DNA from: a virus
Taxonomy: Duplodnaviria > Caudoviricetes
Reading direction: 5' to 3' (one strand)
Length of the DNA stretch: 64,000 nt
Virus record (IMG/VR): IMGVR_UViG_3300037424_000993
Location: 1 to 64,000 of that record
Shown: piece by piece, positions 1 through 28,362 of the stretch
Layout of the letters: every line of letters starts with the position of its first letter
Numbering within the stretch: the stretch's first letter is position 1
Notes under the pieces: generated by a model
What the model was told of the DNA's origin: nothing
Databases searched by the model: none
Seen by the model: the letters and a program-made list of their open reading frames with translations, nothing else
Program-made: the position numbers and the translations under genes

Positions 1-289
1 TGCGAAACAACAACCCTGGACGCGCTCCGAGCGACTGTTTGCGTATCAAAGAACCCCAAAACTTTGCAGCTTCTCTCGATAGCCTTGCCCGAAGTTGGCG
101 CATGGTCTCGCTGTGAGCTGTTAGCGGTGGGGCTTCGGGCCCAGGTGCATTGATTACGATCCACTCCCGCCTTGTGTTGGGCGTCGTGTCGCCACCGCGC
201 CCGCAGAATGAGCAGTACACTCCGGGCACTCCACATCCAGTGCCGCAGTAGTGGTACTGGACAGTTGGTCCGTTGCTAATGGCAATCAC
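1..289 (-). CDS. Hypothetical protein, runs off window edge
   Basis: GTG at 289 overlaps the upstream TGA; the frame stays open to position 1; Cys-rich N-terminus. Confidence 0.35.
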   Translation of the reverse strand, partial: MIAISNGPTVQYHYCGTGCGVPGVYCSFCGRGGDTTPNTRREWIVINAPGPEAPPLTAHSETMRQLRARLSREAAKFWGSLIRKQSLGARPGLLFR

Positions 290-486
290 ATCGCCCTCCA
301 ACACCCCTGGCACAACACCCCAACCAGCCTACCGCCTCGCCACAATAGCGCACGGTCGCTGTTCTGCCGTTGGGGCCTGCGGCAGAGGAAGCACGGGTGA
401 GTTCCGAGGCGCGGGCGCGGGTGGTTGAATTCGGATGGGTGGGGTTTCGCATTACGTCTCCTAGTTGTCCCAGAGTTCTTCGTCAT
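286..486 (-). CDS. Small CxxC...CxxC protein
   Basis: CFLC and CQGC motifs; stop overlaps the next start; start uncertain. Confidence 0.35.
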   Translation of the reverse strand: MTKNSGTTRRRNAKPHPSEFNHPRPRLGTHPCFLCRRPQRQNSDRALLWRGGRLVGVLCQGCWRAM

Positions 487-1501: not shown

Positions 1502-2529
1502 GCGCTAGCCCTCCATCGCCACAGCTTTCGCTTTGGCCCAAGTGTTTCTTCGATCGCATCCGCGTACCGATCACCAGCGTGGTCGTTGTCGGTAGCTATT
1601 GCCACGCTGGTTCCGGCAGGAACAGCTCGCGCAAAGTCCTGCGTCCAGCTACCAGAACCAATCCCAATAACGGCCACGCCAGGGCGCCACGACGTGCACG
1701 CTACCAAAAAGTCCGGTTCACCTTCGACTATGACGAGTTCAAGCGGGCATACCTGACGACGCAGCATCCCAAGAGCCATGCGGTTTGCGAGAACCAGTCC
1801 AGACGCCTTACGCCCCGCCGGGGGAAGACGTTTCGGCGTGTCCCCTTCGATGACGCGCCACGCGCGCACGCTCTTAAACACGCCACAATGATCAAATACC
1901 CGAAGCAGCACCCGGTGCCCCGTACGTGTCCAAGGCTTACCACGATAGCGCGCCCACTCCGGAAGTTCAGTCCCGTCTGGTATCGATCGAGCCAAGTCGC
2001 GCAAACTAACCTCTACAGGATCGATCTTCCGTTTGACGAGCACCCGCGATCCGTCGCGGTCATCCTCCACTGGTACACTCGTGGACCAGAGCTCTTCGAG
2101 TTCTGCGGATTCCGGATACTCGGGGTCAGGTACGGGTGCCGGGACTGGGACGGGCCGCCGTTCGAGTGGGACATCGTCCGGGCGTCTGAGCTGGTAGGCC
2201 AACTCAAGAAGCCCTGCCGCCTCAGCCCCAGCGATCAGCACCTCGCGAAATTGGTCACCGCGCGTCGATAGACCGTGCACCATCGCGATGACGCCGATCG
2301 CGTCCGCAGACCAGTCGCAACTGAAACACCGAGCTCGCGCCGTTCCGTCCGGCCCCCTCGAGATGCTACAGCTTGGGTCGCGGTCGCCGTGAGCTGGGCA
2401 GCACACTAGTACGTATCCGTGCTGTGGCTTAGCGCCTTTCTCGAGACCCATAACGCGCACCAAGCGCATAGGGTCACTTAGCGCGTTTCGAATGTCGCGC
2501 ACAGCTTCCGAGAATTCGATCCGTGTCAC
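1498..2529 (-). CDS. DNA primase-like protein (Zn-binding + TOPRIM)
   Basis: CPAH...CFSC zinc finger; VEGEPD and DNDHAG TOPRIM motifs. Confidence 0.85.
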   Translation of the reverse strand: MTRIEFSEAVRDIRNALSDPMRLVRVMGLEKGAKPQHGYVLVCCPAHGDRDPSCSISRGPDGTARARCFSCDWSADAIGVIAMVHGLSTRGDQFREVLIAGAEAAGLLELAYQLRRPDDVPLERRPVPVPAPVPDPEYPESAELEELWSTSVPVEDDRDGSRVLVKRKIDPVEVSLRDLARSIPDGTELPEWARYRGKPWTRTGHRVLLRVFDHCGVFKSVRAWRVIEGDTPKRLPPAGRKASGLVLANRMALGMLRRQVCPLELVIVEGEPDFLVACTSWRPGVAVIGIGSGSWTQDFARAVPAGTSVAIATDNDHAGDRYADAIEETLGPKRKLWRWRASA

Positions 2530-3296
2530 GCGGTTGCCCTCCCGGTTTCGTCGACTTCGATGGCTCCGTCGGTGTCTTCCACCGGATCAAGACTTGCCAG
2601 AATTTCTCGTCGCCTCCGAGGATCTCGCCACGAACCACGGACAACCTTGATCACTGTCGTTCGCCACTGCTCAGCGAAGCGCTCGGTGCCAGGTGACGCT
2701 GGCTCAGCCACCCAGTCAGCGACTGCCCGGTCCACGAACTCACGTGGCGCCATCAGGTCAACTTCGAGTTGCCTCTTGTCGCTTTCAGTTAGCGGGTCGG
2801 TTTCTGGCTTCGAAACCCTGAGGGGGGTAGGGGGGTGATCATGATCACCTGGATCGGGATCGGGATCGGGATCGGGGTTGAAATTCGCTTGGATGTTTGC
2901 TTCCGGAGTGCTTGGTGTTTGCTCAAGCAATTGCTTGGACGTTTGCTTGCGTTTTGCTGACCGTTTTCCACCTCGTTTGCCTGCCTCTGACCTTGCTTTT
3001 TTGATTGCCTCCGCCCTGTCCGCGCTGATGTTCCACTCCAAGAAATCATGAATCATCCAGCCGCTTTCCGTCTCTTCCCAGAGTCCGCGATCAACAAGTT
3101 GATCGATTGCGTTAGCTAGTGCCTTGCCGCGCGGTACAGATGGCCAGGTTTGCGGCAACTCACGGTCGACTCGGCCATCGGTCCCGTTCGCGCAACATTC
3201 CAAGAGGCCGGTAACGTGTAGACGCCAGACACGGTCGTGAAGCGGAGCGACCTTACGGTGCCTGTGGAACCGGTCATCGAGACGAAGCCAGCTCAA
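2526..3296 (-). CDS. Phage replication initiator-like protein
   Basis: MSWLRLDDRFHRHRKV N-terminus typical of phage initiators; PD-repeat linker; internal iterons; TTG start after GGAGGG. Confidence 0.7.
   Translation of the reverse strand: MSWLRLDDRFHRHRKVAPLHDRVWRLHVTGLLECCANGTDGRVDRELPQTWPSVPRGKALANAIDQLVDRGLWEETESGWMIHDFLEWNISADRAEAIKKARSEAGKRGGKRSAKRKQTSKQLLEQTPSTPEANIQANFNPDPDPDPDPGDHDHPPTPLRVSKPETDPLTESDKRQLEVDLMAPREFVDRAVADWVAEPASPGTERFAEQWRTTVIKVVRGSWRDPRRRREILASLDPVEDTDGAIEVDETGRATA
2887..2948. repeat. Three iteron-like direct repeats GCTTGG(A)YGTTTGCT, candidate origin
   Basis: Copies start at 2887, 2910 and 2933 (23-bp period) inside the initiator gene. Confidence 0.6.
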
Positions 3297-3796
3297 ACCG
3301 CTGCCCTCCATTGAACACGATTGCACGCGTGCGCCCAGTCCTCTGCAGGGTCGTAGTCTCCGACGTGGGCGTTTCCCCAGCCGTCTCCGCATGCCCTGCA
3401 GCGCCACGACAGCTCACGGCAAAGCACCGAGACCTCGCCACAGGATAGGCACCTGAAAAGCTCTGCCTGGCCCCACAACGGCTCGCCATCGTGCCACTCA
3501 AGCAGGCGACCGACCTCAGGTGTCCGATTCGGAGCGCAGAGTATCAACGCCTCGCGATTCCACCCGGACACCTCAACCTTGGATTCGGCGAGTGCTACCT
3601 CCTCCACTGGGCCCTTGATCTCGAGGAGCAGTGGACCGGCAGGGAATCGCACGATGAAGTCAGGTATGTATCCCTCAAGATCCACGGGTTCGTATTCCCA
3701 ATTCCAACCGACCCGCTCAAAGAACGCAGCGAACGCTGCCTCTGTGCGGCTTCGAAAATTGACACCCTCGTAGGTTGTTGGAATTCCCTTAATCAC
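3293..3796 (-). CDS. PD-(D/E)xK nuclease-like protein
   Basis: FRSRTEA..WEYEP..YIPDF..LLEIKG; GTG start after GAGGAGG. Confidence 0.7.
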   Translation of the reverse strand: MIKGIPTTYEGVNFRSRTEAAFAAFFERVGWNWEYEPVDLEGYIPDFIVRFPAGPLLLEIKGPVEEVALAESKVEVSGWNREALILCAPNRTPEVGRLLEWHDGEPLWGQAELFRCLSCGEVSVLCRELSWRCRACGDGWGNAHVGDYDPAEDWAHACNRVQWRAAV

Positions 3797-3980
3797 GTTT
3801 ACCTCCTCGCGCACACCGCGCCGAACAATGCTCTCGCCCATGCGTCGCCCGGATGCCGCCAAACCGCCTCCCGCATACGACCCAGGCAGGCCAGGTGGAG
3901 CAGACGGGCGTCTCGACGGTGAGAGCCTGATAGCCGAGTTGCCGAAGCAGCTCGGGTGTGTATGTGATACCGTGGCTCAT
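3789..3980 (-). CDS. Small hypothetical protein
   Basis: ATG overlaps the ruvC-like stop; its stop overlaps the next start region. Confidence 0.45.
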   Translation of the reverse strand: MSHGITYTPELLRQLGYQALTVETPVCSTWPAWVVCGRRFGGIRATHGREHCSARCARGGKRD

Positions 3981-4459
3981 CGTCTCGCCCCTGGCTGCGT
4001 CGCCCCGGCAATAGCAATCGCTATCGAATCGCTGCGGTCCAGCCCGATACGCTCCGGAACACCGCGGACCATCCGCTTCACCCATTCGCGGACTTGCCGT
4101 TTGCTGGACCGTCCTGACCCAGTGATGCGCTTTCGCCAAGTTGCCGGCATGACCTCGACGAACGGGATGCGGCGTTGTGTGGCGAAGAGCTGGACGGCGC
4201 CGTTGACCCGCAGGATGTCAGCCGACCCATACTGGCTTTTTACGCCGCCCTTGGCCGCCCCCGGGGTGAACATCCAGCTGACGTTTTCGGTCGAGCAGCA
4301 TTTCACGTCGAATGGACAGTCTGCGAGGTATGACATCAGGTCATCCAGTGATCGCAACACAGGACTGTCGAGCAGGGCCCAGCCCTTCGACGACCGCTCG
4401 ATGATGCCGACGGCTGGGCTCGATAGGCCCGGGTCGGAGCCTAGGGAAATGAAACTCAC
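3977..4459 (-). CDS. RuvC-like Holliday junction resolvase
   Basis: LGSDPGL (motif I), STENV, P..W+K..TGSG..SK, DRSDSIAIA. Confidence 0.8.
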   Translation of the reverse strand: MSFISLGSDPGLSSPAVGIIERSSKGWALLDSPVLRSLDDLMSYLADCPFDVKCCSTENVSWMFTPGAAKGGVKSQYGSADILRVNGAVQLFATQRRIPFVEVMPATWRKRITGSGRSSKRQVREWVKRMVRGVPERIGLDRSDSIAIAIAGATQPGARR

Positions 4460-5472
4460 GCTGGCTCCTTGAGCATCTCAAACATATCAACCTGTCGCGC
4501 CGGCTCTGGCTTGATGCACGCCGGGCTGAACCAGATGCACTCAAGATCAGTCGTTTCCTTGCCCGCGTATGTGCTTGCACCGCGTGACCACTGGACAGCG
4601 TCCCACCCGGGCAAGTCGTAGTCACCGACGTGGCCGCAGATGGCCACGCGCAAACCGGCATTATCTCGAGCCCAGGAGGCAACCTCGTCAGCAACGGGGG
4701 CTGAGTCGCCGTACAGTTTTTCATATCCGCAATAGGGAGGATCGAGAAACACTGCCGTTTTTTTGCCGCCGTAGTGACTATTTAGGCACCGATCCCAGTT
4801 ACCGTGAACAACGCGAACCCGCCCGAGTCGAGCAGCTAATTTCGTGAGCGCCACGTGAGCAGCAGCGCCGCCGCTGGTCAGATAACCCCTACCGGCGTCG
4901 CTAACGTGAGGGACCTTACCGAGCGCTTGGACACCCCTACCGGCGTTGCTAACGTGAGGGACCTGACCGAGCGCTTGGACGCCCATACCGGCGTCGCTAA
5001 CGTGAGGGACCTGACCGAGCGCTTGGACGCCCACGCCGGCGTTGGTAACCTTGAACCAGTCACACCATCCGGACCCGATCCAGCAGCATTGTCCCCAGAG
5101 CCACCACCCGGCAACCTGAGGATCCCCGGGCCACTCCGGATCTTGAAGAGCATCAGCGAGCCTATCCCGTTGCTCCATGAGCCACCGATGTCTGGCACCC
5201 AGGTCAACGTGACTGACTGGATAATCAGCGTGTTCCGCTACCGCTTCCGGTTGATACTTTGTGGCTCGCCAGAAGTTTGCAACGAAACCGTTAGCGTCAC
5301 CGATTACCTCCAGCTCAGCCTCGCGTGGCGCCGCTAGCAGCATGGCAGCACTGAAGCAGAACGGCTCGATATAGTGCTTCGGTTTACCGAGACGCTGCCA
5401 AACTAGACCAGTAACGAGACGCTTACCTCCAAATGCAGGGAATGGTGCTTTCATGGTTGATCGCTCGCTCAC
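4456..5472 (-). CDS. DNA adenine methyltransferase (Dam/D12-like) with internal tandem repeat
   Basis: PFPAFGGK, YIEPF, C-terminal FLDPPY. Confidence 0.85.
   Translation of the reverse strand: MSERSTMKAPFPAFGGKRLVTGLVWQRLGKPKHYIEPFCFSAAMLLAAPREAELEVIGDANGFVANFWRATKYQPEAVAEHADYPVSHVDLGARHRWLMEQRDRLADALQDPEWPGDPQVAGWWLWGQCCWIGSGWCDWFKVTNAGVGVQALGQVPHVSDAGMGVQALGQVPHVSNAGRGVQALGKVPHVSDAGRGYLTSGGAAAHVALTKLAARLGRVRVVHGNWDRCLNSHYGGKKTAVFLDPPYCGYEKLYGDSAPVADEVASWARDNAGLRVAICGHVGDYDLPGWDAVQWSRGASTYAGKETTDLECIWFSPACIKPEPARQVDMFEMLKEPA
4886..5043. repeat. In-frame 48-bp tandem repeat (about 3.3 copies, 16 aa each)
   Basis: Units start at 4890, 4938, 4986 and 5034; they encode (N/D)AGxGVQALG(Q/K)VPHVS. 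Confidence 0.9.
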
Positions 5473-6017
5473 TCCGCCACCTCGCGAAACTCTCGCCTCA
5501 AACGAAGCCTAGAGCTCGCCCTCTCTTCAATTTGCCTCGCCCGCTCGCGTGTAACCGCCATGGCCTCCCCAACCTCGTCAAGCGTCATCCCGCCGCGCTG
5601 AGCATGGTCAAGCGCGCAATTGCCGCGGCGCCACTTGTCGATGTCCTCGCTGCCATACACAAGCGTGATGGTCCCGTTGCGCGGGTTCACGTCGACCGCT
5701 AGGTTCCATTTGCAGGTCGCGAAAGGGCAGGGTCGAGGCGAGGTGAAGCAGCCAAGTCGCGTTTCGGGGCGCTCTGAAGGCCCAAGTAGTGCCAACGACC
5801 GGCGCGCTTGCGCCTTTTCGGCCAGCGTTGCGCGAGTCGTGCGGATCGTGCGACTGACTTGGGACTGTCGCGGTCGTTTGTCGCGGTATGAGAGGCGTTC
5901 GCAGTGGATGCATCGGGCCTGCCTTCCGTCGCGCCCCTTGCGGTTCTTGTAGTATTCCTTTAGCGGCCTGGGGATTCCGCAGCGGGAGCAGGGTTTGGTC
6001 TTTAGGGGTGGCGTCAT
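5469..6017 (-). CDS. Zn-finger plus sigma-70 region-4-like HTH protein
   Basis: CSRC...CIHC at the N-terminus; MTLDEVGEAMAVTRERARQIE at the C-terminus. Confidence 0.75.
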   Translation of the reverse strand: MTPPLKTKPCSRCGIPRPLKEYYKNRKGRDGRQARCIHCERLSYRDKRPRQSQVSRTIRTTRATLAEKAQARRSLALLGPSERPETRLGCFTSPRPCPFATCKWNLAVDVNPRNGTITLVYGSEDIDKWRRGNCALDHAQRGGMTLDEVGEAMAVTRERARQIEERASSRLRLRREFREVAE

Positions 6018-6775
6018 ACTGGCACCTCGAACAGAGAGCGCGTGAACGACCCAGCAGCGTCGACAAATTTTTGCTCAAGCTCCCACCCGACGAATCGTCG
6101 CCCTTCCGTTGTGGCAGCTCGACCGGTACTCCCGCTACCAGCGTACGGATCGGCTACCAGGTCACCACGGCTGGAGTACGTGCGAACCAGGTGCGCTAGT
6201 AAACCCTCGGGCTTTTGCTGGGGGTGCACGCGCTTACCGTGTCGGTTGTTAGGCACGCAGGGGAAGTCCAGGACGCTGACGGGGAAGCGGTCCATCTCAC
6301 CAGCGCGGGACCTAGTTGCCTTTGCGCCTTTCCCATAGTTGGCGCCATGGTTCGATTTCAGGTCGTCGCCGAGCCTGGGACGATTCGCAGAAATCGGAAC
6401 CGCACCCGTCCACATCTGCGGGTGGTATGCGCCCTTCTCACGCCAGAATACCAGCACGAACTCATGTGCGCGCAGAGGGCGACTCTCCGCGTTGTAGAAA
6501 CCGGTCGCTAGACTCTTCCTCCACACCAAGTCATACCGGTACGCCTCCGGTTCGACCTCGATCGCCCGCATCGCGAACTTGAGACTCGAAGCCATGAGCA
6601 CCGCAATCCCTGTCGGCTTGAGCGCGTGCCAGACGGCTGGGAAAAGAGCGTCCAGGTCAGCCTGCTTGTCGAATGGGGCAGCTGTCTCTCCCGATGGTAA
6701 ATCGCTCAGCACTAGGTCCACGGAACCAGCCTCAAGCGCAGCAAGGCCCAATGGGCCGTCCCCGAGGTGAATCAC
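6014..6775 (-). CDS. N6/N4 DNA methyltransferase, beta class
   Basis: Motif IV-like DLPS, HPQQKP, motif I DPYAGSGST, GWEL. Confidence 0.8.
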   Translation of the reverse strand: MIHLGDGPLGLAALEAGSVDLVLSDLPSGETAAPFDKQADLDALFPAVWHALKPTGIAVLMASSLKFAMRAIEVEPEAYRYDLVWRKSLATGFYNAESRPLRAHEFVLVFWREKGAYHPQMWTGAVPISANRPRLGDDLKSNHGANYGKGAKATRSRAGEMDRFPVSVLDFPCVPNNRHGKRVHPQQKPEGLLAHLVRTYSSRGDLVADPYAGSGSTGRAATTEGRRFVGWELEQKFVDAAGSFTRSLFEVPV

Positions 6776-7359
6776 TCAGCCGCCCTTTCCGCAGTATGCT
6801 CTTCGACCACATCGCTAGCTCTAACCTGCTCCAAAGCCTCCGCCGCAGGCGCCTCGTGGCCCCACCGATCCCACCCTTCACGTGCCTGCCGAGCAAACAT
6901 TTCGAGATAGGGACCCTTCGACCGTTGCTCAATCAACTCGTACGCCTCCGGTGGCTTGCGCGAATGCACACGCTCCCGCATGCCAGTCTCCAGCACGCTC
7001 GTTAGCGACTTGGTTTCAGTGCGCACTGCCACGCCGGAGCCGCGTACAAAGAACAGCAAGAGCTCGTGCTTCCCTCGGAAATACTGGCCCAAACCAGCGC
7101 GCGGCTTGGGCCACACCACGTTTGTTACGTAGCGAAACCCGAGGGCACCACCAAGCCAGAGGCCGTCTGGGAGGTAATTGTTGCTCACCCACATGTAGAG
7201 GTGTGCGTTAGGCGCTGGACGCCAGACACCAGAGCCGATGATTACGCTAGGCATGTCGCGCACATTGAGCAGCGAGTAGTGCCGGTCAGCTCCGCGCTTG
7301 ATTTTGCCGCCGCCACGCTCTGGCCACGGCGGGTCAAGTAGCGTTGTTGAGTAGCTCAC
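6772..7359 (-). CDS. MT-A70 family adenine methyltransferase
   Basis: LDPPW, HSRKP, LEMFAR, WGHEA motifs. Confidence 0.88.
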   Translation of the reverse strand: MSYSTTLLDPPWPERGGGKIKRGADRHYSLLNVRDMPSVIIGSGVWRPAPNAHLYMWVSNNYLPDGLWLGGALGFRYVTNVVWPKPRAGLGQYFRGKHELLLFFVRGSGVAVRTETKSLTSVLETGMRERVHSRKPPEAYELIEQRSKGPYLEMFARQAREGWDRWGHEAPAAEALEQVRASDVVEEHTAERAAE

Positions 7360-7862
7360 AGCCCACCAACCTTCTCTCGCAGCCGAACAATCTCCTCAGC
7401 GAGCACCACCCGGACCGGGCGCGAATCGGTCGGTGACAACGACGCCAACAACCGCTCCAGCGTCCCTATCTCAGTCGCGAGCAGCAGTCTGTTCAGCTCC
7501 TCACCGTTGACGCCGTTCTCAGCGTTGCGGGTCAAGCCAGGATACTCGCTGCGTTCCAGCAGGTGCCAACGTTGCGCGTGCGGCCGTTTTGCCATCTTTT
7601 CAGCATCCTGCGCGAGAAACCGGGCCAACGTTTCGGGGCTTATCCCGCTCTCGATCTCAACCACATCGACCATTGCATCCGGGTCCCACTGCGCGAAGTT
7701 GTGCGACTCAAACATCACCTGAATTTGCTGACCGCAGCGTGTCCAGCCGCGGGTCGCTATCTCGTTCACAAATGGCTCACCGCCATTAATCGTACAGTAA
7801 ATGCCGTGATTGTACGGCGTCACGTCGATTGCGCGTTTCTGAACGATTGTTGGCTCACTCAC
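7356..7862 (-). CDS. Hypothetical protein
   Basis: ORF in the coupled operon; GTG at 7862 overlaps the upstream gene end. Confidence 0.55.
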   Translation of the reverse strand: MSEPTIVQKRAIDVTPYNHGIYCTINGGEPFVNEIATRGWTRCGQQIQVMFESHNFAQWDPDAMVDVVEIESGISPETLARFLAQDAEKMAKRPHAQRWHLLERSEYPGLTRNAENGVNGEELNRLLLATEIGTLERLLASLSPTDSRPVRVVLAEEIVRLREKVGGL

Positions 7863-8040
7863 GATGCACCTCACTTTCCCGCCGCGCCTCAACCGCAGCA
7901 GCATATCTCTCCAAAAGCACGCAAGCCGGCACGCGCCTGTCTTCGCCGTCGTCAAGCAGGACGCCCAGCTCTCTCACGACAGCTAGGCGCTGAGCATCAG
8001 TTAGCTCAGTGTGACGTACTAGCGGGTGGTGCACGGTCAC
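7855..8040 (-). CDS. Hypothetical protein
   Basis: GTG overlaps the HNH stop (GTGA). Confidence 0.45.
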   Translation of the reverse strand: MTVHHPLVRHTELTDAQRLAVVRELGVLLDDGEDRRVPACVLLERYAAAVEARRESEVHRE

Positions 8041-8450
8041 TGAAACAACTCCCCGCAAGCCTTGCGGCTTCGCCGTGTATTCGCGGCCTCGCGCTGGTGG
8101 TGCTCCCGGTCGTGCGCCAGGTGACAGCGCTGGCAGAGCGCCCTGAGGTTGTCGTCGCGACAGTCCGACGGGTCGTGGTTCGTATGTGACACGGTCAGCA
8201 CCACGCGCACCGGCTTACCCGTGAATTCCCCGTACCAAGTGCCGAGCTCTTCACCTGTCTCTGCGTTGCAGATCATAAGGTCATCCCGCTGATACGTGCC
8301 CGCGTCGTTTCCTGTGCCGCGTAGAATAGTCTCGCCGTTCTTGGCCCCGCACTGCTCGCACTTGTTGCCAGCACGCTCGTTCCGGATGCGCAGCGAGATG
8401 CGCTTCCAGTCCTTGGGATAACGCGCGCGGTTTTCTGGTTTTATGGGCAT
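8037..8450 (-). CDS. HNH endonuclease
   Basis: CEQC, LTVSHTNH, NLRALCQRCH. Confidence 0.85.
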   Translation of the reverse strand: MPIKPENRARYPKDWKRISLRIRNERAGNKCEQCGAKNGETILRGTGNDAGTYQRDDLMICNAETGEELGTWYGEFTGKPVRVVLTVSHTNHDPSDCRDDNLRALCQRCHLAHDREHHQREAANTRRSRKACGELFQ

Positions 8451-9028
8451 TACACCTCCAAGTCCGGGATCTCCGGTGCGGCCAAGCGCCGCTCTTCCGC
8501 AGCCTTCGCAAGGTCGACCAGCTTCCGTACGCGCTCTGCGAATTCGTGGTCGTGCACCATGCGACGCGCGACGTTGCGCTCGGCGGACATCACGGTTGTG
8601 TGGTCAAATCCGAGCGCAAACCCAATCGACGGGAAGCTCCAGCGGGGCACGCTCCCGTGCCGCGACACGTAAAACATCACATGTCGCGGCTCGATGAGCT
8701 CCTTGAAGCGACGACCCTCGAGCAAGTGATCGCTACCTAGCGCGTAGGCGTCGGCGACGATGTACGCGATATGGAGCGCGCGCTGGCGCAGCGGTGACTG
8801 CTCTGGTGAAAGCATGGCCCGCTTCTCGCGCTTGTAGTCCGTGCGTTTCCTGACCGCGCCAGGGTGGTCAACGTAGGGGCGCGAGATGTGCGTCGGGTCC
8901 TGATGGATCAGCGCCTTCGGTCGGAGTGGCCGAAGCGCTCCGAGCCCGTCGTAGTGGCGACAGGTCGACACCACACACTGTCCATCGAGCATGTCGTGTT
9001 CGCAGCGTTCGTTGACTGCCTGTGTCAT
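8450..9028 (-). CDS. Protein with DnaA C-terminal (domain IV) HTH
   Basis: RHVMFY..SFPSIGFALGFDHTTVMSA matches the DnaA_C RDHTTV signature. Confidence 0.75.
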   Translation of the reverse strand: MTQAVNERCEHDMLDGQCVVSTCRHYDGLGALRPLRPKALIHQDPTHISRPYVDHPGAVRKRTDYKREKRAMLSPEQSPLRQRALHIAYIVADAYALGSDHLLEGRRFKELIEPRHVMFYVSRHGSVPRWSFPSIGFALGFDHTTVMSAERNVARRMVHDHEFAERVRKLVDLAKAAEERRLAAPEIPDLEV

Positions 9029-9378
9029 GAAGCACTCACTTTCTTGAACTCGATTCGGTTGACGATGGTCGACGGCTCGCACCCTTTCGCGCGATTCGCT
9101 TTGCAGAAAAACTCGACGAACTCGGTGGGCGTCATCTCCGGAAACCCCTCGCGCCTGACATCGTCAGTCGTGATCGCGTCGAGACGTTCACCGCGGGCCG
9201 AGATGCACACACACTCGCCGAGCACTACCTGCTTCTCACCCTTCTTGAGGCCCTGACCTTTCTCGATACCAAGGAAGTGTTCCTCGGGCTGAATGCCCCA
9301 TTGTCCGAGTCGCCTCGTTACGTCCTTGGAGCCGTCAAGGAACTGGCGCTTGGTCAGGAAGAACGACATTCGCCTCAC
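9025..9378 (-). CDS. ASCH/PUA-like domain protein
   Basis: GSKDVTRR and DVRREGF motifs. Confidence 0.7.
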   Translation of the reverse strand: MRRMSFFLTKRQFLDGSKDVTRRLGQWGIQPEEHFLGIEKGQGLKKGEKQVVLGECVCISARGERLDAITTDDVRREGFPEMTPTEFVEFFCKANRAKGCEPSTIVNRIEFKKVSAS

Positions 9379-9584
9379 GACTTCAACTCCAGAATCTCAA
9401 ACTCGCTGAAGTGACCGTACGCACGCAGGTGCTGCTTCCAGACCTCCCACGCCGTTGTGCCGCCTAGCAAAGCGTGCACGAACTTGCCGCCGACGGGAGC
9501 CCCGTCGCGACGTCGGCAGCGCCATGACACGACGGCGCCGGCCGGGCGTGATACGTGAGCGTACTCTGGCGGTTCGTTTACCAT
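9375..9584 (-). CDS. Hypothetical protein
   Basis: Stop overlaps the next start. Confidence 0.5.
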   Translation of the reverse strand: MVNEPPEYAHVSRPAGAVVSWRCRRRDGAPVGGKFVHALLGGTTAWEVWKQHLRAYGHFSEFEILELKS

Positions 9585-9599
9585 ACTCTTTCACCTCTG

Positions 9600-10151
9600 T
9601 TATCTGATCGGGAACGGCTTCAGTTTTGCGCTCAGGAAAAGCGGGTGCGAAGGGCTTCCGTCGGAGTTGAGCTTGAGCGCATAAGGCACTCTGCCGGCGG
9701 CTCGGATTAGATCGAGTGTCGGCTGCCCCATCGCGCCTCCGAGTCCGCCCCATCCGCAAACGATCACCTCGGCGGATGACACGAGTAGTCCTAGATGCTC
9801 ATGGTTTCTTGGCCCAATGGCGCGCGGGTCCGGCGGCAGCAGTTTTGGATCTGTCTCCCTCCACGCTCTCACGTTCGCCGTAACTGACCAGCCAAAGTCC
9901 CAGTCTCGGCAGAAGTTCCTCCACCGCGTCAGGGTCGGGTCCAACTTGTCAGCGGTTGCCGTGCTCGGGTTCGCGAAGATGCCGAGGCACATCCGATCGT
10001 TGTCCAGTCCCGTGGGCCACCAGAGCTGGTAGCGATACCGACGACCACGGCAAGCGTCTACTGTGCACTCTGTGTGCTCTTCGCAGTCGGAGAAAACGGC
10101 CAAGGTACGGCGCAGATTGAACAGTTGCGTTTGAGCGGCGAGGTCGATCAT
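9600..10151 (-). CDS. DUF1643 family protein
   Basis: NPSTA...DPT, WGG, GSPSHPL motifs. Confidence 0.8.
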   Translation of the reverse strand: MIDLAAQTQLFNLRRTLAVFSDCEEHTECTVDACRGRRYRYQLWWPTGLDNDRMCLGIFANPSTATADKLDPTLTRWRNFCRDWDFGWSVTANVRAWRETDPKLLPPDPRAIGPRNHEHLGLLVSSAEVIVCGWGGLGGAMGQPTLDLIRAAGRVPYALKLNSDGSPSHPLFLSAKLKPFPIR

Positions 10152-10249
10152 CGTGCCTTCCTCCTGTCCAGCCAAGCCAACAGCAGAAACATCCCTAGAC
10201 ACGCGGCGTAGAGAGCGAGGGTGAGGTCTTGCCAGGTCCAGTCACCCAT
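10148..10249 (-). CDS. 33-aa membrane peptide
   Basis: ATG after GAGGAG; hydrophobic core LTLALYAACLGMFLLLAWL. Confidence 0.55.
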   Translation of the reverse strand: MGDWTWQDLTLALYAACLGMFLLLAWLDRRKAR

Positions 10250-10535
10250 TGCGCAACTCCTCAACAAGCTCAGCGATCGAGAACCTAACGACCCCCTTTC
10301 TGCACGCCCAGCACGACAGTGGCCCAGACCCGTCCTCCGAGCCGTTGCCACCACACTCGCTGCATGTCTGGACTAACCCCTCGTCCCACCAGAGTCCACC
10401 GTGACCCGTAATACGCCCGACAGTATCGCAAGCGCTCTCCAGTAGCTCGTAGCTGCGCTCAGACACCTTGTCAGCACACCACGCCACGCCATATAGGGCG
10501 TACAGCGCTGCAATGGTAGTAAGGCGGTTACTCAC
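10242..10535 (-). CDS. CxxCxGxG Zn-finger protein, paralog A
   Basis: CSECGGNG and CWAC; N-terminus similar to the next gene. Confidence 0.65.
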   Translation of the reverse strand: MSNRLTTIAALYALYGVAWCADKVSERSYELLESACDTVGRITGHGGLWWDEGLVQTCSECGGNGSEDGSGPLSCWACRKGVVRFSIAELVEELRNG

Positions 10536-10815
10536 GTCGCAACTCCTTTGCTAGTTCGGCAGGGGTGATCCACTCGTGTCCAGGCCCGCCGCAAGCGCCG
10601 CACCAATCGTCGCCGAAATGCCTGCAAACGCCGGAACCATTGCAAGCGCTGCACGGCCTTTCCGCTGTGGGATAGTGACCGTCCGCTGGGCTCCAATGAC
10701 GGTCCGGCACCAGCGCTACGAGCGAACGATGTGCCCCGTTCAGCACCTGGATTGCCGTCCACGTAACTCCGTGGATAGCGTACAGCGCTGCAATGGTGGG
10801 GAGGCGGTTAAGCAT
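10528..10815 (-). CDS. CxxCxGxG Zn-finger protein, paralog B
   Basis: CSACNGSG and CGACGGPG; MLNRLPTIAALYA resembles MSNRLTTIAALYA. Confidence 0.65.
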   Translation of the reverse strand: MLNRLPTIAALYAIHGVTWTAIQVLNGAHRSLVALVPDRHWSPADGHYPTAERPCSACNGSGVCRHFGDDWCGACGGPGHEWITPAELAKELRRE

Positions 10816-11116
10816 TGCGCAACTCCTCACACCCAGGCGCTTCGCACCCTTCTACGTCGCACTCGTCAGGACAACTCTCGCAGCGCGGCTTGGGCAGTGG
10901 TCCGATCAGGACGTCGCCACAATGCCAACATGAGGGGTCCGCGCTCCCTTGCGCTTTGATAGCCGCCGCAAGCTCGTCGGCATTGCGCTCGAGAATGCGG
11001 GCTTGAACAAGCGATGTGTCCGCAAACAGTGAGGTACGCGCTATGTGCCGGTAATTGGCAGCCTCACCTCTCCACGTGCGCACCAGGTCAGCGGGGAGTG
11101 TCGTTTTGTTACTCAC
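10808..11116 (-). CDS. Hypothetical Cys-rich protein
   Basis: CWHC, CESC; GGAG RBS. Confidence 0.6.
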   Translation of the reverse strand: MSNKTTLPADLVRTWRGEAANYRHIARTSLFADTSLVQARILERNADELAAAIKAQGSADPSCWHCGDVLIGPLPKPRCESCPDECDVEGCEAPGCEELRNA

Positions 11117-11702
11117 CGCGCAACTCCTTCGCCGCTTCGGTTGCCGCGGCTGCTAACGCCTCCAACTTTTCCGCGAGTTCGATGCGGGCGAACATGGGCG
11201 CACCGTAGCTCTCGAGCACAACCCGGTCACCGTCAGGGAAGCACGACTCAGTTAGCGATTGCTCGCGTTGCTCAACGCCCGCTTTCGGCCGCTCTATCTC
11301 CGCCTTGGCTTCGTCGAGCTGTGCCGCTAGCTTAAATATCGACTCGAGGGACAGCGTGTAGTTAGCCTGTTTAAGTTCAGCGACGGCTCCCTCACAAGAC
11401 TCGTACGGCCCGCACGAACCTTCCTCAGGGTACTCGCTATCCCAAAATACCCACCCTTCGTCGGTATGATCTAGCTCTGCCTCGTCGAGCTTGGCATTGG
11501 TCTCCGCCGCCTGCTCGGGTTGCTTGGGCTTGTGGCACTCACAGGGGCACGGCGTGGTTTTGCAGTACGCTCCCAAACTGCACTTTGGACAGGGCAGGGG
11601 GCATTGAGTACAATTTCGCGTCGTGACCCACTCATCGTGGTTTTCGTCAATAAACGACACACGGTGACTGTCCTTGCAGTGGTCGCATACGGGCTTAGGC
11701 AT
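11109..11702 (-). CDS. Cys-rich plus coiled-coil hypothetical protein
   Basis: Several CxxC pairs at the N-terminus; heptad-like C-terminus. Confidence 0.6.
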   Translation of the reverse strand: MPKPVCDHCKDSHRVSFIDENHDEWVTTRNCTQCPLPCPKCSLGAYCKTTPCPCECHKPKQPEQAAETNAKLDEAELDHTDEGWVFWDSEYPEEGSCGPYESCEGAVAELKQANYTLSLESIFKLAAQLDEAKAEIERPKAGVEQREQSLTESCFPDGDRVVLESYGAPMFARIELAEKLEALAAAATEAAKELRGE

Positions 11703-11907
11703 TGTCGCCCCCTTGAACGCTCGAGAAGTAGCCGCCTATCGCGTGGTTGAGCTGAAGCGACAGTTGTCGCCAGTTTCCGGCTATGGCCCACCACCATCGG
11801 GCCTCCCATGGCTGCCTCCGGAGCGCCCGAGCAACGATGTGCTGCGAGTACGGGTAGCCGACGAAGGCCCAGCGTCGGAGTGCTTTGCGAGCGATGCGGC
11901 GGTTCAC
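11695..11907 (-). CDS. Hypothetical protein
   Basis: GTG overlaps the upstream TGA. Confidence 0.45.
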   Translation of the reverse strand: MNRRIARKALRRWAFVGYPYSQHIVARALRRQPWEARWWWAIAGNWRQLSLQLNHAIGGYFSSVQGGDNA

Positions 11908-12119
11908 TGGGTGCCGCCTTTCCCCGGCAACCACCACCTGCCACGCCTCGCGCCAGGCCACTTGACGACGCGGAGCGCTCCGCAGTCGAGGCACCACTCA
12001 GTCACGATCGGTCTAGCAGACGGAGCGCCATGGACTAGGACAACGCTACCGGGGGTCCAGATACCACGAGTGCCACTCGGCGCGAGGTAGCGGGAGCGCT
12101 TGTGTCGGCATCGGCTCAC
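11904..12119 (-). CDS. Hypothetical protein
   Basis: Fills the gap between coupled ORFs; CLDC motif. Confidence 0.45.
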   Translation of the reverse strand: MSRCRHKRSRYLAPSGTRGIWTPGSVVLVHGAPSARPIVTEWCLDCGALRVVKWPGARRGRWWLPGKGGTQ

Positions 12120-12550
12120 GAGGCACCGCCTTTCCGCGGAGGCCACGGATTGACCCGCACAGCTCCCCTGTATTGCCCGTAGTGAATAAGGCAAAGGTGA
12201 CGATCCTCGCCTACTTCATGAGCGCAGTCGGGACACAGCGGAGCGTCGCAGGTTTTCCCGCCGCCCATTGGGTAATCGCAGAGCAGATCGGCAAAGTAGC
12301 CGCAGGTGCAAACGTCGAGCTCGCCAGGCTTGAAGCTGCCACAGATGAACATCTCAGCGCCGCCGCCTGCCATTGTTTTCTCTCTTGCAATCTGGACTTC
12401 CAAAATCTCCTTTGGAGTGCGCGTTACAAGCTGCCCTTTCACAACGTGACGCTTCTCGCTCTCGGAGGCCGGGTAACCATGGCCCCATCCCAATGCCTCT
12501 TTGGCTTCGTACAGAGACGAAGGGCGCGACTTGCCTTTCAGGCAGGTCAC
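12116..12550 (-). CDS. Zn-finger hypothetical protein
   Basis: CTCG..LCD..CDAPLCPDC..LCLIH; GTG overlaps the integrase stop. Confidence 0.6.
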   Translation of the reverse strand: MTCLKGKSRPSSLYEAKEALGWGHGYPASESEKRHVVKGQLVTRTPKEILEVQIAREKTMAGGGAEMFICGSFKPGELDVCTCGYFADLLCDYPMGGGKTCDAPLCPDCAHEVGEDRHLCLIHYGQYRGAVRVNPWPPRKGGAS

Positions 12551-14010
12551 TGGGCGCCTCCGGAGCAGGCTGTGATGCCCCACTTCTGACCGGGGATAAC
12601 CTTGAGTCGGTGGGCTGTCTTGACGAGCCCCCGCAGAGGTGCCAAATACTGGGTGCGGATCCCACTATGGCCAGTATTCGCGTGCTCTAGCGAGTCTCCG
12701 CGAGGCGAAAACTCCGAAAACCCTAATAGTTGTAGCCGAAACCTGACCCTTGAGGTGCTAGTGGGGTAACTCCCGTGGAGGTTCGAGTCCTCTCCTTCGC
12801 ACTGCAGGAAAACAGCTACTTTAGGGCGGCCCGCGCACACCCCGAAAACGCGCTTTTCGACGCCGCCCCCAGTATCGCCCCCACTATTGCCGCTCACCAG
12901 GTCGACCACTTCGGCGGCCTGCTTCTCGTCGGCGTGGCTGTAGCGATTGGTCGTGCTCGCCTGCTTGTGGCCCACCAGGAAACCCACGCCCAGGGTCCGG
13001 CCGCCGCTTTGGTCCATTAACTCGGTGGTCCGAGCATGGCGCATATCGTAGGCCTTCACCCGGCTGGCGATGTGCTCGGGGATGCCGGCGGCCCGAGCCG
13101 CCTGCCTGAGCGACGTGCGGTAGTCTAGTGTCCGGACCAGCTGGCCCCCATTCCGGAGCTGCCCGAGCCGGTGGATCTCGGCGTGGTAGCAGCCCTCGAG
13201 CAGTTCGCACGCGTGCGGGCTCAAAGGCACCTTTCGCTCCCAACGATTTTTATCGACATCCTCAGTCACGTCGAGGTGGCGCTGGCCCGGGTGCCAGTGG
13301 GTGCCAACGCGGAAGCCATCCCAGAATCCCGGGCGTAGCGCCGTCTCGAACATCAGCGCGAAGTAGGGCCGGAGCGGCCATTGCTCGCCGCTCTTTCGGT
13401 TTTTGCGGCAAAGGTCGGGAAGGTGCGGAATCAGCTGGCGTGCCGTCGCCGCGGTGAATCCCTTGGTCCAGCCGCTCGGCGCTTGCTTAGCCTTGGTACC
13501 CAAGCTCTTGTGCGGGCGGTCAGGGAAGCGTGGGATCTGCCCGATCCAGCTCTTGATTTCAGCGAACTTCAACACCTGCATCAAAGTGCTCAGCTCCTTT
13601 TGCACCGTGCTGTACCGGACGCGCTTCAGGCGCTCGGATTGGTACGATGCGAGCGCTCCGCGCGTGACGTCGCACAGCCGCTTGAATCGCGGCAAAAGGT
13701 GCACGCGCAGATGAATCTTTCGCAGGTTCGCTGTTCGCTCCGTGATTTCACCACCGGACTTTTCGGCCAGGTACGCCGCTGCCACCTCCGACAGTTTCGC
13801 TGTCGGATCGTTGCCTGTCTGAACCTCGTTTTTCCACTGTCCGGAGTAGACCCAGTCGAGCCGATCCGCCTTCCACCGCGTAGCGCGCGCCAGATCGTCC
13901 GCTGGAATGACGGCCGTCTTGAAGTCGTGTCTCGTGCCCTCGTGCGTAAATCGCAAGCGCCACCATTTGCCGGTGTGCGTAAGCTGCGGATCGCCAGGCT
14001 TGCGCGCCAT
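12547..14010 (-). CDS. int: Tyrosine integrase containing attP in its 3' coding region
   Basis: TALRPG (R), YDMRHAR (RH), LVGHKQASTTNRY (H/Y); adjacent excisionase. Confidence 0.92.
   Translation of the reverse strand: MARKPGDPQLTHTGKWWRLRFTHEGTRHDFKTAVIPADDLARATRWKADRLDWVYSGQWKNEVQTGNDPTAKLSEVAAAYLAEKSGGEITERTANLRKIHLRVHLLPRFKRLCDVTRGALASYQSERLKRVRYSTVQKELSTLMQVLKFAEIKSWIGQIPRFPDRPHKSLGTKAKQAPSGWTKGFTAATARQLIPHLPDLCRKNRKSGEQWPLRPYFALMFETALRPGFWDGFRVGTHWHPGQRHLDVTEDVDKNRWERKVPLSPHACELLEGCYHAEIHRLGQLRNGGQLVRTLDYRTSLRQAARAAGIPEHIASRVKAYDMRHARTTELMDQSGGRTLGVGFLVGHKQASTTNRYSHADEKQAAEVVDLVSGNSGGDTGGGVEKRVFGVCAGRPKVAVFLQCEGEDSNLHGSYPTSTSRVRFRLQLLGFSEFSPRGDSLEHANTGHSGIRTQYLAPLRGLVKTAHRLKVIPGQKWGITACSGGAQ
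12645..12888. repeat. Five arm-type integrase site candidates, (C/G)CCA(G/C)TAT, flanking the att core
   Basis: 12645-12653 (inverted), 12661-12669, 12670-12678, 12868-12876, 12880-12888. Confidence 0.65.
12749..12801 (+). other. attP core = 3' half of tRNA-Leu(GAG)
   Basis: Anticodon loop TTGAGGT, stem strand GCTAG, long variable arm, T-arm GGAGG-TTCGAGT-CCTCT, acceptor strand CCTTCGC-A. The 5' tRNA half is absent. Confidence 0.9.
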
Positions 14011-14274
14011 TTAGGCTGCCCCTTCGAGTTCGGCTGCAATGTCCGCAATCTGCTTGCTCGAACGCACGAGGGCGCGCGCCTTCCTGCGGCGCTGTTTAGC
14101 CACAGTGGGCGTATGCGCGTGCTCGGTCATGTAGGCGTCCAGCTCGCTCGGTTTGAACATTGGTTTGCGTCCGATCATGTGTCGTTCGATCTTGGGGTAC
14201 ACGTGCTTACGGAACGTGGTGGGGCTCACCCGTAGATAGCGGGCCGCCTCCTCGAGCGTTAGGTACGGGCTCAT
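14011..14274 (-). CDS. xis: Excisionase / MerR-like HTH
   Basis: YLTLEEAARYLRVSPTTFR...FKPSELDAYM; directly upstream of int. Confidence 0.8.
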   Translation of the reverse strand: MSPYLTLEEAARYLRVSPTTFRKHVYPKIERHMIGRKPMFKPSELDAYMTEHAHTPTVAKQRRRKARALVRSSKQIADIAAELEGAA

Positions 14275-14298: not shown

Positions 14299-15258
14299 TC
14301 ACCACTGCTCTTGCAGTCGTGCCCCGCTCTCACCGTGCTGGCCAGGCTTGCCCCACAGGGGCACGACCTTCGTTCGCTCTTCGATCTCATCGCAGACGCC
14401 GCGGAACGCGTCCTTGACTGTCTGCCTGATGCGATGGAGCTCGACGAAGAAGCGGACCTGCCCGCCGCTCACCCGGTAACGCAGCCGCACCGGAAGCACG
14501 TAGGAACGCGCGGCATACTCAAATATCGGCAGCTGGATCAGGAACAGGCTCGGCACCTTGACCTTGCCTCCGCCCCCGTCCTTGTGCTCTTCGACGAACG
14601 TCAACGTGCGCTCGCCGCTGTTGGTATTCGCTCTGTCGACGACCTTGCCCGTCGAGTGAATCTCGAGCCCTCCCGAGAGGGCGAGCACGTCTTGCGGCGA
14701 TGCGATGGCCACGCCGAGTTTCGTAGCGAACGCCTGCGCATTTTGCGCGACCTGCGCGACTTCCGGATTGACCACGTCGACCACGTCGACGAAGCGCTCG
14801 TCAAGGAACAGTGCGAACTCATCGACCGTGAAACCCAGCTTGCGATCCTGCGCTCGCTGCCAAGCCAAATACTCGTCCGAGAACGGCAGCGGCATGTGCG
14901 CGCCGAACGCCTCGAAGCGCGCCTCGCCATCGGGGCCGCCTCGGTGGGCGTCGTAGAGCGCTGTCACAGCTGGCGCATCGCGATCGAGGAATACCAGCGA
15001 GTGATCGTCCTTGAACTTGTTCACGTGCTCACAGAACGAGTCCAGGTCGCTAAGCGTGTAGATGCCCGTGCGACGCTCAGGCTCGGTGCGCAGTTCGTCC
15101 AGGAACGGCTTGAGCGATTGGAGCCGCATCCCAGCCGGGACGCATGCCACGTTGCACTCGGCGCTGGTGCCTCGAGCTGCGGTCAAGGTTTCCGGCTTGA
15201 AGCCGTCTTTGAATAACTGCGCAGCGGCAGCGGTTTCGGAAGCTGTATTATTTGCCAT
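14299..15258 (-). CDS. DUF2303 (YfdQ-like) protein
   Basis: LDSFCEHVNK, FALFLDE, LPIFE..LRYR pattern. Confidence 0.75.
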   Translation of the reverse strand: MANNTASETAAAAQLFKDGFKPETLTAARGTSAECNVACVPAGMRLQSLKPFLDELRTEPERRTGIYTLSDLDSFCEHVNKFKDDHSLVFLDRDAPAVTALYDAHRGGPDGEARFEAFGAHMPLPFSDEYLAWQRAQDRKLGFTVDEFALFLDERFVDVVDVVNPEVAQVAQNAQAFATKLGVAIASPQDVLALSGGLEIHSTGKVVDRANTNSGERTLTFVEEHKDGGGGKVKVPSLFLIQLPIFEYAARSYVLPVRLRYRVSGGQVRFFVELHRIRQTVKDAFRGVCDEIEERTKVVPLWGKPGQHGESGARLQEQW

Positions 15259-15295
15259 CTATTATGGTCCTTTCCCCGGCCAAATGCCGTGTGAA

Positions 15296-15688
15296 TCAGT
15301 TGAGTTTTTCGTCCTCGGCCTCGGCGAGAACGCGGGCATCCTTGTCAAACAGGTCTTCTTGGTGCATCTCTGGCGTGCTTTGGAGACGCCCGCCTTTGCC
15401 TACGAAGAACGTCGTTGCTGCCCGCTTCTTCGTCGGGAGCTTGCTAGTCAGCTTGTATTTCAGCTGGACCACGCCCTTTGCGTTGACCTCCGGCGATAGC
15501 ACCAGGGTCACCGCACCGCCGCCGATCGTGCCGTCCTTGAGAGACGCCTCGACCTTGCTCGCGCGGATCACTTCGCGCAGCATTCGTTCTGCTTCCCACG
15601 GCAGGTCATCGATGCGCGACAGCGTGTCGAGGAACTCTTTCCCGTCGTCTTCCTGCTCGGCCAATATCTCGTCTGTGCTCTTTGCCAT
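15296..15688 (-). CDS. Hypothetical protein (usual partner upstream of DUF2303)
   Basis: GGAG RBS; VTLVLS..KLP..FF pattern. Confidence 0.65.
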   Translation of the reverse strand: MAKSTDEILAEQEDDGKEFLDTLSRIDDLPWEAERMLREVIRASKVEASLKDGTIGGGAVTLVLSPEVNAKGVVQLKYKLTSKLPTKKRAATTFFVGKGGRLQSTPEMHQEDLFDKDARVLAEAEDEKLN

Positions 15689-15756
15689 GCGTGAAACTCC
15701 TAAACTAGCCGCTAACCGCGGCCGGAAAGATTGCGCCGCTCCCGGGCGGCCGTTAG

Positions 15757-16106
15757 TGGACCCGCTGGGAATCGAACCCAGGTCCGCGAAGCCTACAAGC
15801 CATCGTCGTCCACATGCTTGGTCGAGGTACGGTCGGCTAGCCTCGACAGCCGTTGACGCCAGGGGGTCGGCGCCTCCACCACCCGCTATTTCTCGCTGGT
15901 CGCTCGCGGGATTGTTACCAGCCAGCCCGTGTGGTGACGCCGCTGAGATACTCGGGCTCCTTGCCCAGCGACGGCTTAGGCCGCTTGCGCGACTTCGGCG
16001 ATTGCGTTGGTATTCGCAATTGGAGTTGCTCATTTGGTCAAGCCGGTACGAGCGCCGGCTGCATGCACGATGACCCTTCGATTCCACGTCGAAACCATTC
16101 GGGCCC
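15757..16106 (-). ncRNA. ssrA: tmRNA, tag peptide ANTNAIAEVAQAA*
   Basis: 5' GGGCCCGAATGGTTTCGAC; 3' CTGGGTTCGATTCCCAGCGGGTCCA; acceptor stem with G3.U70; GCATGC/GCATGT helix; tag ORF 16017-15976. Confidence 0.95.
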
Positions 16107-16113
16107 AGAACGG

Positions 16114-16187
16114 TTGCGGGAGCCCGATTTGAACGGGCAACCTCTTGGTTATGAGCCAAGCGAGCTACCGGATTGCTCCATCCCGCA
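16114..16187 (-). tRNA. tRNA-Met(CAT), initiator-like
   Basis: Complete cloverleaf of 74 nt; anticodon loop CTCATAA; T-loop TTCAAAT; A11-U24; CCA not fully encoded. Confidence 0.93.
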
Positions 16188-16329
16188 GTTGCACGGTGCC
16201 CACCGGCCGCCATGGCAACCGGTGAGCTGGGCATCTGCCCGGAGACGCCCGTGCGCGCCCCTTCGTTCTCTGTTTTTACAAATAGGTGTGCTTGGATCGG
16301 CGTTTGCCGTCCGTTAGTCTGGAACTGGG

Positions 16330-28206: not shown

Positions 28207-28362
28207 CGCTCTCCCCACTGCCGCACAGGCAGCTTAGAAATGCTGGGTGTTGTTTTCACTCACTGCCGAATAGGCAGCTAGCAGTAGCGGGCCCGGATGG
28301 GCCCCGACCGACTTGATACTACAGTCGCTATTGAGCCCCCTTGGGGGCGGAAAGGAACGAGA

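Follow-up and report, generated by a model that had tools for sequence, protein, structure and literature searches.

Introduction

Among 18,146 phage genomes, 402 (2.3%) have been recorded to carry a tmRNA gene, 133 of these being unique, without demonstrated function (PMC9004378). Their carriers include mycobacteriophages of cluster C, marine Melnitz-like phages and pelagimyophages, phages of Bradyrhizobium elkanii and huge phages (PMC9004378; PMC12656738; PMC7162821), and clusters of tRNA and tmRNA genes are a documented phenomenon in phages (PMC9004378; PMC12656738). The known phage tmRNAs are complete ssrA genes, often located beside tRNA genes, on phages that carry no smpB, and their function is presumed to rely upon the SmpB protein, the alanyl-tRNA synthetase (AlaRS) and the processing enzymes of the host.

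The locus examined here, a tRNA-Met gene directly followed by a tmRNA gene, resembles these cases in all of the above respects. The statement in a preliminary description of the locus that tmRNA genes occur in few phages is a fair one given the figure of 2.3%. The locus differs from the known cases in its setting, a mid-sized (75.5 kb) temperate Polyangiaceae myovirus with only two convincing RNA genes, and in the tmRNA itself, which is a one-piece molecule with an unlisted tag ending in AQAA and for which no close relative was found in IMG/VR, 401 Myxococcota genomes or JGI metagenomes. Since phage tmRNAs are already known, the tRNA and tmRNA pair adds an unusual member to a known kind and does not constitute a new type of system. 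The initiator-type tRNA class described below is a more novel thread than the tmRNA.

Results

The phage genome and the surroundings of the RNA genes

The window, i.e. the whole stretch of DNA analysed, comprises bases 1–64,000 of the 75,517-bp IMG/VR virus record IMGVR_UViG_3300037424_000993. The record has direct terminal repeats, a CheckV completeness of 100% and structural genes for portal, head protease, major head, tail sheath and baseplate hub proteins. It is a complete temperate myovirus of 75.5 kb. Both RNA genes are on the minus strand, within an uninterrupted run of minus-strand genes ending in xis and int, in agreement with their earlier placement in a leftward gene run ahead of xis/int. 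Small regulators, including a HTH protein and a sigma-70 region 4 protein, come first on this strand and are followed by a 64-aa gene, the leader, the tRNA, the tmRNA, a 130-aa gene and the genes for DUF2303, the HTH_17 excisionase and the tyrosine integrase. The features, in this order, are as follows.

16188–16329, minus strand: non-coding leader, 142 nt, between the upstream ORF and the tRNA (RNA fold)
16112–16187, minus strand: initiator-type tRNA-Met(CAU), 76 nt (ARAGORN; Rfam; alignment with host initiators; match to the presumed metY)
16107–16111, minus strand: 5-nt spacer GUUCU, from the encoded CC of the tRNA to base 1 of the tmRNA (sequence)
15754–16106, minus strand: one-piece tmRNA (ssrA) (Rfam RF00023; ARAGORN, 15756–16106)
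15976–16017, minus strand: tag reading frame within the tmRNA (ARAGORN detail and sequence)
15296–15688, minus strand: phrog_204 protein, 130 aa, YfdP counterpart, the first gene downstream of the tmRNA (PHROGs)
14299–15258, minus strand: DUF2303 (YfdQ-like) protein (Pfam PF10065, 4e-37; phrog_210)
14011–14274, minus strand: excisionase-like HTH_17 protein (Pfam and PHROGs)
12547–14010, minus strand: tyrosine integrase (Pfam PF00589, phrog_1)

With phage genes on both sides and attP elsewhere, the cassette of tRNA and tmRNA sits in a bona fide phage genome. ARAGORN gave no other convincing RNA gene anywhere in the 75,517-bp record. The program also called an 89-nt tRNA-Arg(GCG) at 42481–42569 on the plus strand, antisense within a 568-aa ORF at 41340–43046 on the minus strand. 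Given this antisense location inside an ORF and the lack of an Rfam call at the gathering score, the tRNA-Arg is probably a false positive. SmpB (PF01668) is absent from the window, as had been noted previously, and also from the entire record, and no gene for a CCA-adding enzyme was found in the whole phage genome.

Strong structure is predicted for the 142-nt leader, whose folding energy of -61.7 kcal/mol (z -3.53) was equalled by 0 of 200 shuffled sequences. It contains a 13-bp hairpin, without a U-tract, which ends 10 nt ahead of base 1 of the tRNA. The leader (16188–16329) may act as a site of processing, as an attenuator or as a GC-rich terminator. Promoter scans and a terminator scan found no promoter-like and no terminator-like site around the cassette. 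On the other side of the cassette, the 68-nt trailer between the tmRNA and the ATG of the phrog_204 gene has no significant fold (z 0.45) and no terminator, and it runs into the ribosome-binding site of that gene (AGGAG, 8 nt ahead of the ATG).

The YfdP-YfdQ pair (14299–15688) is conserved in three distant phages (L168, L170 and L172), where YfdP also precedes DUF2303 and where the neighbours vary and include primase, sliding clamp and methyltransferase genes. These three distant relatives have no RNA genes at that position, which marks the cassette as an accessory insertion in the present lineage. One close relative was found, with a sheath protein 84% identical, as a 12-kb fragment without the cassette region. 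Searches of IMG/VR, the 401 Myxococcota genomes and the JGI metagenomes gave no close relative with the cassette. IMG/VR contains no close homologue of the neighbouring DUF2303 protein, for which the best match in the protein database is 40% identical.

Integration site and host

The probable attP core is a sequence resembling the 3′ half of a tRNA-Leu(GAG), on the plus strand at approximately 12757–12812 and thus within the 3′ end of int. A 40-nt stretch of this core is exact in five metagenome-assembled genomes (MAGs), all labelled as Polyangiaceae, Myxococcales or delta proteobacterium. On account of this exact match to the five MAGs, the host is very probably a soil myxobacterium of the Polyangiaceae and the phage very probably integrates into tRNA-Leu. 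Integration should rebuild the host tRNA-Leu since the attP core matches the host genomes exactly. The tmRNA gene is about 1.7 kb from int and, the attP being the tRNA-Leu fragment within int, the tmRNA is not the attachment site.

Two exact 40-nt copies of the att core were observed on one contig (CAWELQ010000018.1) of the candidate host G003; these copies (L004 and L006) may flank a resident element or may be two tRNA-Leu genes. The phage itself has two type I-F-like CRISPR repeats on the plus strand of the window, at 28213–28240 and approximately 28258–28284, about 17 nt apart and without a full array. The first of them scored 36 bits against the Rfam CRISPR-DR4 model (gathering score 35). 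The candidate host G003 has a 53-repeat CRISPR array whose repeat differs from the phage repeat at 2 of 25 positions, and 0 of 49 of its spacers match the phage. The phage repeats may represent either an RNA anti-CRISPR that mimics repeats or a mini-array.

Phages with an attP in ssrA, and those showing tRNA-dependent lysogeny (PMC10865867), are like the present phage in being temperate, in having a tyrosine integrase and in having tRNA-related sequence near int. They are unlike it in that here the attP is a tRNA-Leu 3′ half within int and a complete tmRNA gene lies well away from it. Two candidate explanations were rejected on these grounds. An attP in ssrA, or capture of the tmRNA by imprecise excision, was ruled out given the full-length tmRNA and the position of attP. 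[quoted passage not shown]

The tmRNA gene

The tmRNA gene matched RF00023 over the full model (1–374 of 374) at 95.2 bits, against a gathering score of 47, with an E value of 8e-36 (Rfam cmscan), and a search of the whole record gave this match again. ARAGORN agreed, and the complete 350-nt tmRNA with a G3.U70 pair and a tag, as first described, is thereby upheld. ARAGORN and Infernal had been named in the preliminary description among the means of checking the pair, and covariance-model matches were obtained for the tRNA as well as for the tmRNA, the tRNA matching RF00005 at 16114–16187 on the minus strand with 64.6 bits (Rfam cmscan). Both RNAs are far above the Rfam cut-offs over full models.

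The mature tmRNA probably extends from 16106 to 15757, i.e. 350 nt to the discriminator A. The 5′ GGGCCCG of its acceptor stem pairs with the 3′ CGGGUCC to give G3.U70, and the discriminator A is followed by C-U-A where CCA is expected. The tRNA ends with a discriminator A, CC and then G, so the earlier remark that neither RNA encodes a full CCA is correct. The T-arm of the tmRNA is CUGGG-UUCGAUU-CCCAG. Pseudoknot PK1 is present upstream of the resume codon; its stem AGCCGG/CCGGCU shows covariation (alignment columns 48–53 with 62–67) and its second stem, GCUC/GAGC, was located by inspection of the sequence. The location of a tRNA-Met(CAU) immediately upstream of the tmRNA, at 16112–16187, was also as described. 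The gap of 7 nt given for the pair holds with the tRNA ended at its discriminator (16114) and becomes 5 nt after the encoded CC, the span 15757–16187 covering the discriminator A of the tmRNA through to base 1 of the tRNA.

Four of the candidate host genomes have ordinary tmRNAs with the acceptor stem GGGGGCG and tags ANDNAVALAA or ANDNALVMAA. The phage tmRNA is 49–56% identical to these, whereas they are 64–87% identical to each other. The host tmRNAs score 95.3–133 bits with the covariance model, and the phage tmRNA (95.2 bits) is within this range, at its lower edge. Relative to the host tmRNAs, acceptor pairs 4:69 and 5:68 have changed from G:C to C:G in the phage and one T-stem pair has changed from C:G to U:A. 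An alignment of seven tmRNA sequences showed compensatory changes at 29 of the 58 pairs predicted; the phage RNA conforms to the fold, and all seven sequences have G3.U70. Given that the fold is kept through compensatory changes despite the low identity, the alignment argues that the tmRNA is a gene under selection for structure and not decaying passenger DNA. A recent capture of the tmRNA from the host was rejected on the low identity to the candidate host tmRNAs and on the following search.

A blastn search of the 401 Myxococcota genomes with the tRNA and tmRNA gave, among the matches listed, matches on the tRNA part only. When IMG/VR was searched for the tag and for the acceptor stem of the phage as patterns, no tmRNA sharing either was obtained. 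The acceptor stem was found at 12 loci of JGI metagenomes, which contain diverse tmRNAs with varied tags, and the best overall match to the tmRNA (L158, in JGI metagenomes) was approximately 66–69% identical.

The tag reading frame consists of a GCG resume codon, the 13 residues ANTNAIAEVAQAA and a UAA stop, which is within the loop of a GCGGC/GCCGU hairpin. Tags of tmRNAs usually end in a degron composed of a hydrophobic residue and two alanines, of the LAA, VAA or MAA type. The phage tag ends in AQAA as opposed to ALAA or VMAA in the candidate hosts, and ARAGORN reported ‘Tag not identified’. The unusual ending and its non-recognition by ARAGORN suggest that proteins carrying the tag may escape the usual degradation. 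The AQAA ending was also seen in two metagenome tmRNAs with the same acceptor stem (L162 and L164). The tag frame of L162 is, in addition, almost the same as that of the phage at its 3′ end, and the 401 Myxococcota genomes gave no tmRNA of the L162 type.

Two further loci were observed during these comparisons. L162 (Ga0315288_10008668, 1–12829) has its tmRNA, with the phage acceptor stem and AQAA tag, at one contig end, with neighbouring genes for an HNH endonuclease, a tRNA nucleotidyltransferase, NadE, PncB, an isochorismatase-family protein and a VWA protein; it could originate from a large phage or a bacterium. A second tmRNA-like gene is present in the candidate host MAG G004 (L013, C93:16642–16964; 101 bits; ANDNALALAA in the alignment). 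Its first bases are masked as N and it could be a second copy, part of an island or bin contamination.

SmpB is encoded in all four of the candidate host genomes tested. With SmpB absent from the phage, trans-translation with the phage tmRNA would thus depend upon the host. Some of the initiator tRNA and tmRNA genes of the candidate hosts also lack an encoded CCA, indicating that the host adds CCA itself. No tRNA-Met adjoins ssrA at the host loci inspected.

The tRNA is of the initiator type

The tRNA has a U1:A72 pair, an anticodon stem CUUGG/CCAAG with loop CUCAUAA, a T-loop UUCAAAU, a discriminator A and a D stem GAGC/GCUC, which gives A11:U24. Its sole significant match in each of four candidate hosts is the initiator tRNA, with C1xA72 and a GGG/CCC stem. 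The best match in E. coli, 81% identical, is the tRNA between argG and rimP, which we take to be metY in the metY-rimP-nusA-infB operon. There is a median of four matching places per E. coli genome, equal to the number of initiator genes. Identity to the initiators of Myxococcota is 76–85%.

The phage tRNA and the bacterial initiators (E. coli metY/metZWV among them) have in common the CAU anticodon, A11:U24, the anticodon loop, the T-loop and the discriminator A, the 7-nt anticodon loop CUCAUAA being the same in phage and host. They differ at two hallmark positions. Firstly, the phage has the weak Watson-Crick pair U1:A72 in place of the canonical C1xA72 of the candidate hosts. The pair U1:A72 is also found in native copies in two other Myxococcota genomes (G282 and G072). 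Secondly, the anticodon stem of the phage tRNA differs from UCGGG/CCCGA in the host by three compensatory double changes among five pairs. At positions 29–31:39–41, where initiators canonically have three consecutive G:C pairs, the phage tRNA has U29:A41, in place of G29:C41, followed by G30:C40 and G31:C39. Natural initiators without the first G:C pair exist, and E. coli initiator mutants with U1:A72 are said, in work by Seong and RajBhandary in 1987, to be able to act in elongation as well.

As U29:A41 leaves only two of the three hallmark G:C pairs, the phage tRNA is, from its sequence, best called ‘initiator-type’ and not a canonical tRNA-fMet. A reading of it as an elongator or an Ile2-type tRNA, suggested by the paired 1:72 and the weak stem, was dropped after the alignment with host and E. 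coli initiators and the 1:72 statistics of the viral class described below. The role in translation initiation proposed in the preliminary description is broadly right: the best matches are the host initiators and metY, but U1:A72 and U29:A41 depart from the canonical initiator and, with these two hallmarks missing, the role is not assured.

A virus-borne class with the same stem-loop

The 25-nt segment formed by the D-stem and anticodon stem-loop of the phage tRNA defines a virus-borne class of CUUGG/CCAAG tRNA(CAU). The exact 25-mer occurs in at least 116 IMG/VR contigs (L036–L151), on 95 distinct tRNA sequences among the matches listed, and in 0 of the 401 Myxococcota genomes. The acceptor and T arms differ freely between members. 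When 90 distinct members were parsed, position 1:72 was a mismatch in 64, a weak A:U pair in 19, G.U in 1 and G:C in 6, and the discriminator was A in 80. Judged by these counts, the 1:72 and discriminator profile of the viral class is initiator-like. Giant Caulobacter phages are among the carriers, with the gene annotated simply as tRNA-Met.

At 60 of the 116 listed loci the tRNA is the sole tRNA in the stretch fetched, and a tmRNA is nearby at five of the 116. At one locus, L047, a CAU tRNA is 7 nt upstream of a tmRNA but is not of the initiator type. A limited literature search found no paper describing a CUUGG-CUCAUAA-CCAAG tRNA class, which is weak evidence of novelty.

Discussion

The reading we favour, and consider probable, is that the phage carries two genuine accessory RNA genes which are under selection and which support the start of translation and the rescue of ribosomes with a phage-specific tag. 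What the analysis shows are the two genes, the way they fold, how far they have diverged from those of the host and the absence of phage-encoded partner proteins. We infer the expression, processing, charging and benefit of both RNAs along the following lines. Both would most likely be part of a long leftward transcript with yfdP, yfdQ, xis and int. Host RNase P would cut the 5′ ends, followed by 3′ trimming and addition of CCA by host enzymes. Host AlaRS would charge the tmRNA by way of G3.U70 and A73, and host MetRS would charge the phage tRNA. Host SmpB and EF-Tu would then deliver the charged tmRNA to stalled ribosomes, where it would add the phage-specific tag and release the ribosome. 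The phage tRNA would increase or safeguard the pool of initiator tRNA and, having U1:A72, may serve in elongation too. Between them, the two RNAs would allow translation to keep starting and ribosomes to be recycled during infection or lysogeny.

Phage tRNAs are known to evade anticodon nucleases (PMC10264068), and initiator tRNA is a target of VapC cleavage (Winther and Gerdes 2011, as cited in PMC12482277). The two RNAs could, along the lines of the preliminary description, be nuclease-insensitive substitutes for a host initiator tRNA and tmRNA cut by toxins or abortive-infection nucleases, for example of the VapC-type PIN family. The support for this is circumstantial: the phage anticodon stem differs from that of the host initiator at three of five base pairs, the tmRNA sequence is far from that of the host, and the 25-mer is frequent in IMG/VR and missing from the Myxococcota genomes. 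However, the published escape changes sit in the anticodon loop (PMC10264068), and the loop CUCAUAA is the same in phage and host. This identity weakens the argument for evasion, and we regard an anti-defence role as rather unlikely.

A role in the control of lysogeny is less likely again. Excision of the RNAs could separate and destabilise the yfdP-yfdQ-xis-int message, or tagging could tune the stability of a regulator. The location of the cassette is what speaks for this, as it is directly upstream of yfdP-yfdQ-xis-int with no terminator between and is preceded by the structured leader. Trans-translation has been described as acting in this way for some temperate coliphages, the development of a lambda-P22 hybrid and of Mu being dependent on tmRNA, as cited in PMC12656738. 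Against it, many phage tmRNAs are found in virulent phages without int (PMC9004378; PMC12656738), and the analysis found no regulator that has a candidate site for tagging.

The idea that the pair is passenger DNA, a host ssrA and its neighbouring tRNA acquired by imprecise excision or recombination and now neutral or decaying, appears very improbable. Prophage ssrA fragments arising from imprecise excision have been reported (PMC9004378), and the cassette is missing at the same position in the three distant relatives. However, the identity of 49–56% to the host tmRNAs, the lack of any match to the tmRNA part among those listed for the 401 Myxococcota genomes, the structure maintained by compensatory changes in both the tmRNA and the tRNA, an attP in tRNA-Leu and not in ssrA, and the absence of a tRNA-Met adjoining ssrA at the host loci inspected all count against it. 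Least probable of all is a link to integration, with attP in the 3′ end of the tmRNA or with the RNAs compensating for a host gene that integration destroys. In its favour are the frequent use of ssrA as an integration site, the proximity of the cassette to int and the existence of tRNA-dependent lysogeny in actinophages (PMC10865867). Against it, the tmRNA gene is full length and not a 3′ fragment, the attP core consists of at least 40 nt from the 3′ half of a tRNA-Leu and is exact in host genomes, and the phage tRNA is of the wrong isotype.

Returning to support of translation as the preferred role, the phage offers a clean experimental case, being a temperate phage of moderate size with only two convincing RNA genes and no accessory proteins, and having a tag which is distinguishable from the host tags by mass spectrometry. 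The practical gain is modest, namely better annotation, given that the plain label ‘tRNA-Met’ conceals the initiator type of the gene, and a case which lends itself to testing.

A tentative and bolder suggestion, to which we give limited credence, is that the tRNA is a member of a large, apparently undescribed virus-borne initiator class with an invariant stem-loop, possibly allowing escape from nucleases or altered handling by IF3. On the same tentative footing, the viral-class tRNA and the tmRNA with the AQAA tag may form a minimal two-RNA cassette giving the phage its own start and rescue steps. If true, viruses may carry an initiator which escapes stem-loop-directed nucleases such as VapC-type toxins or which is handled differently by IF3. 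The viral initiator-type variant could be used to test whether phage tRNAs exist to survive host tRNA nucleases.
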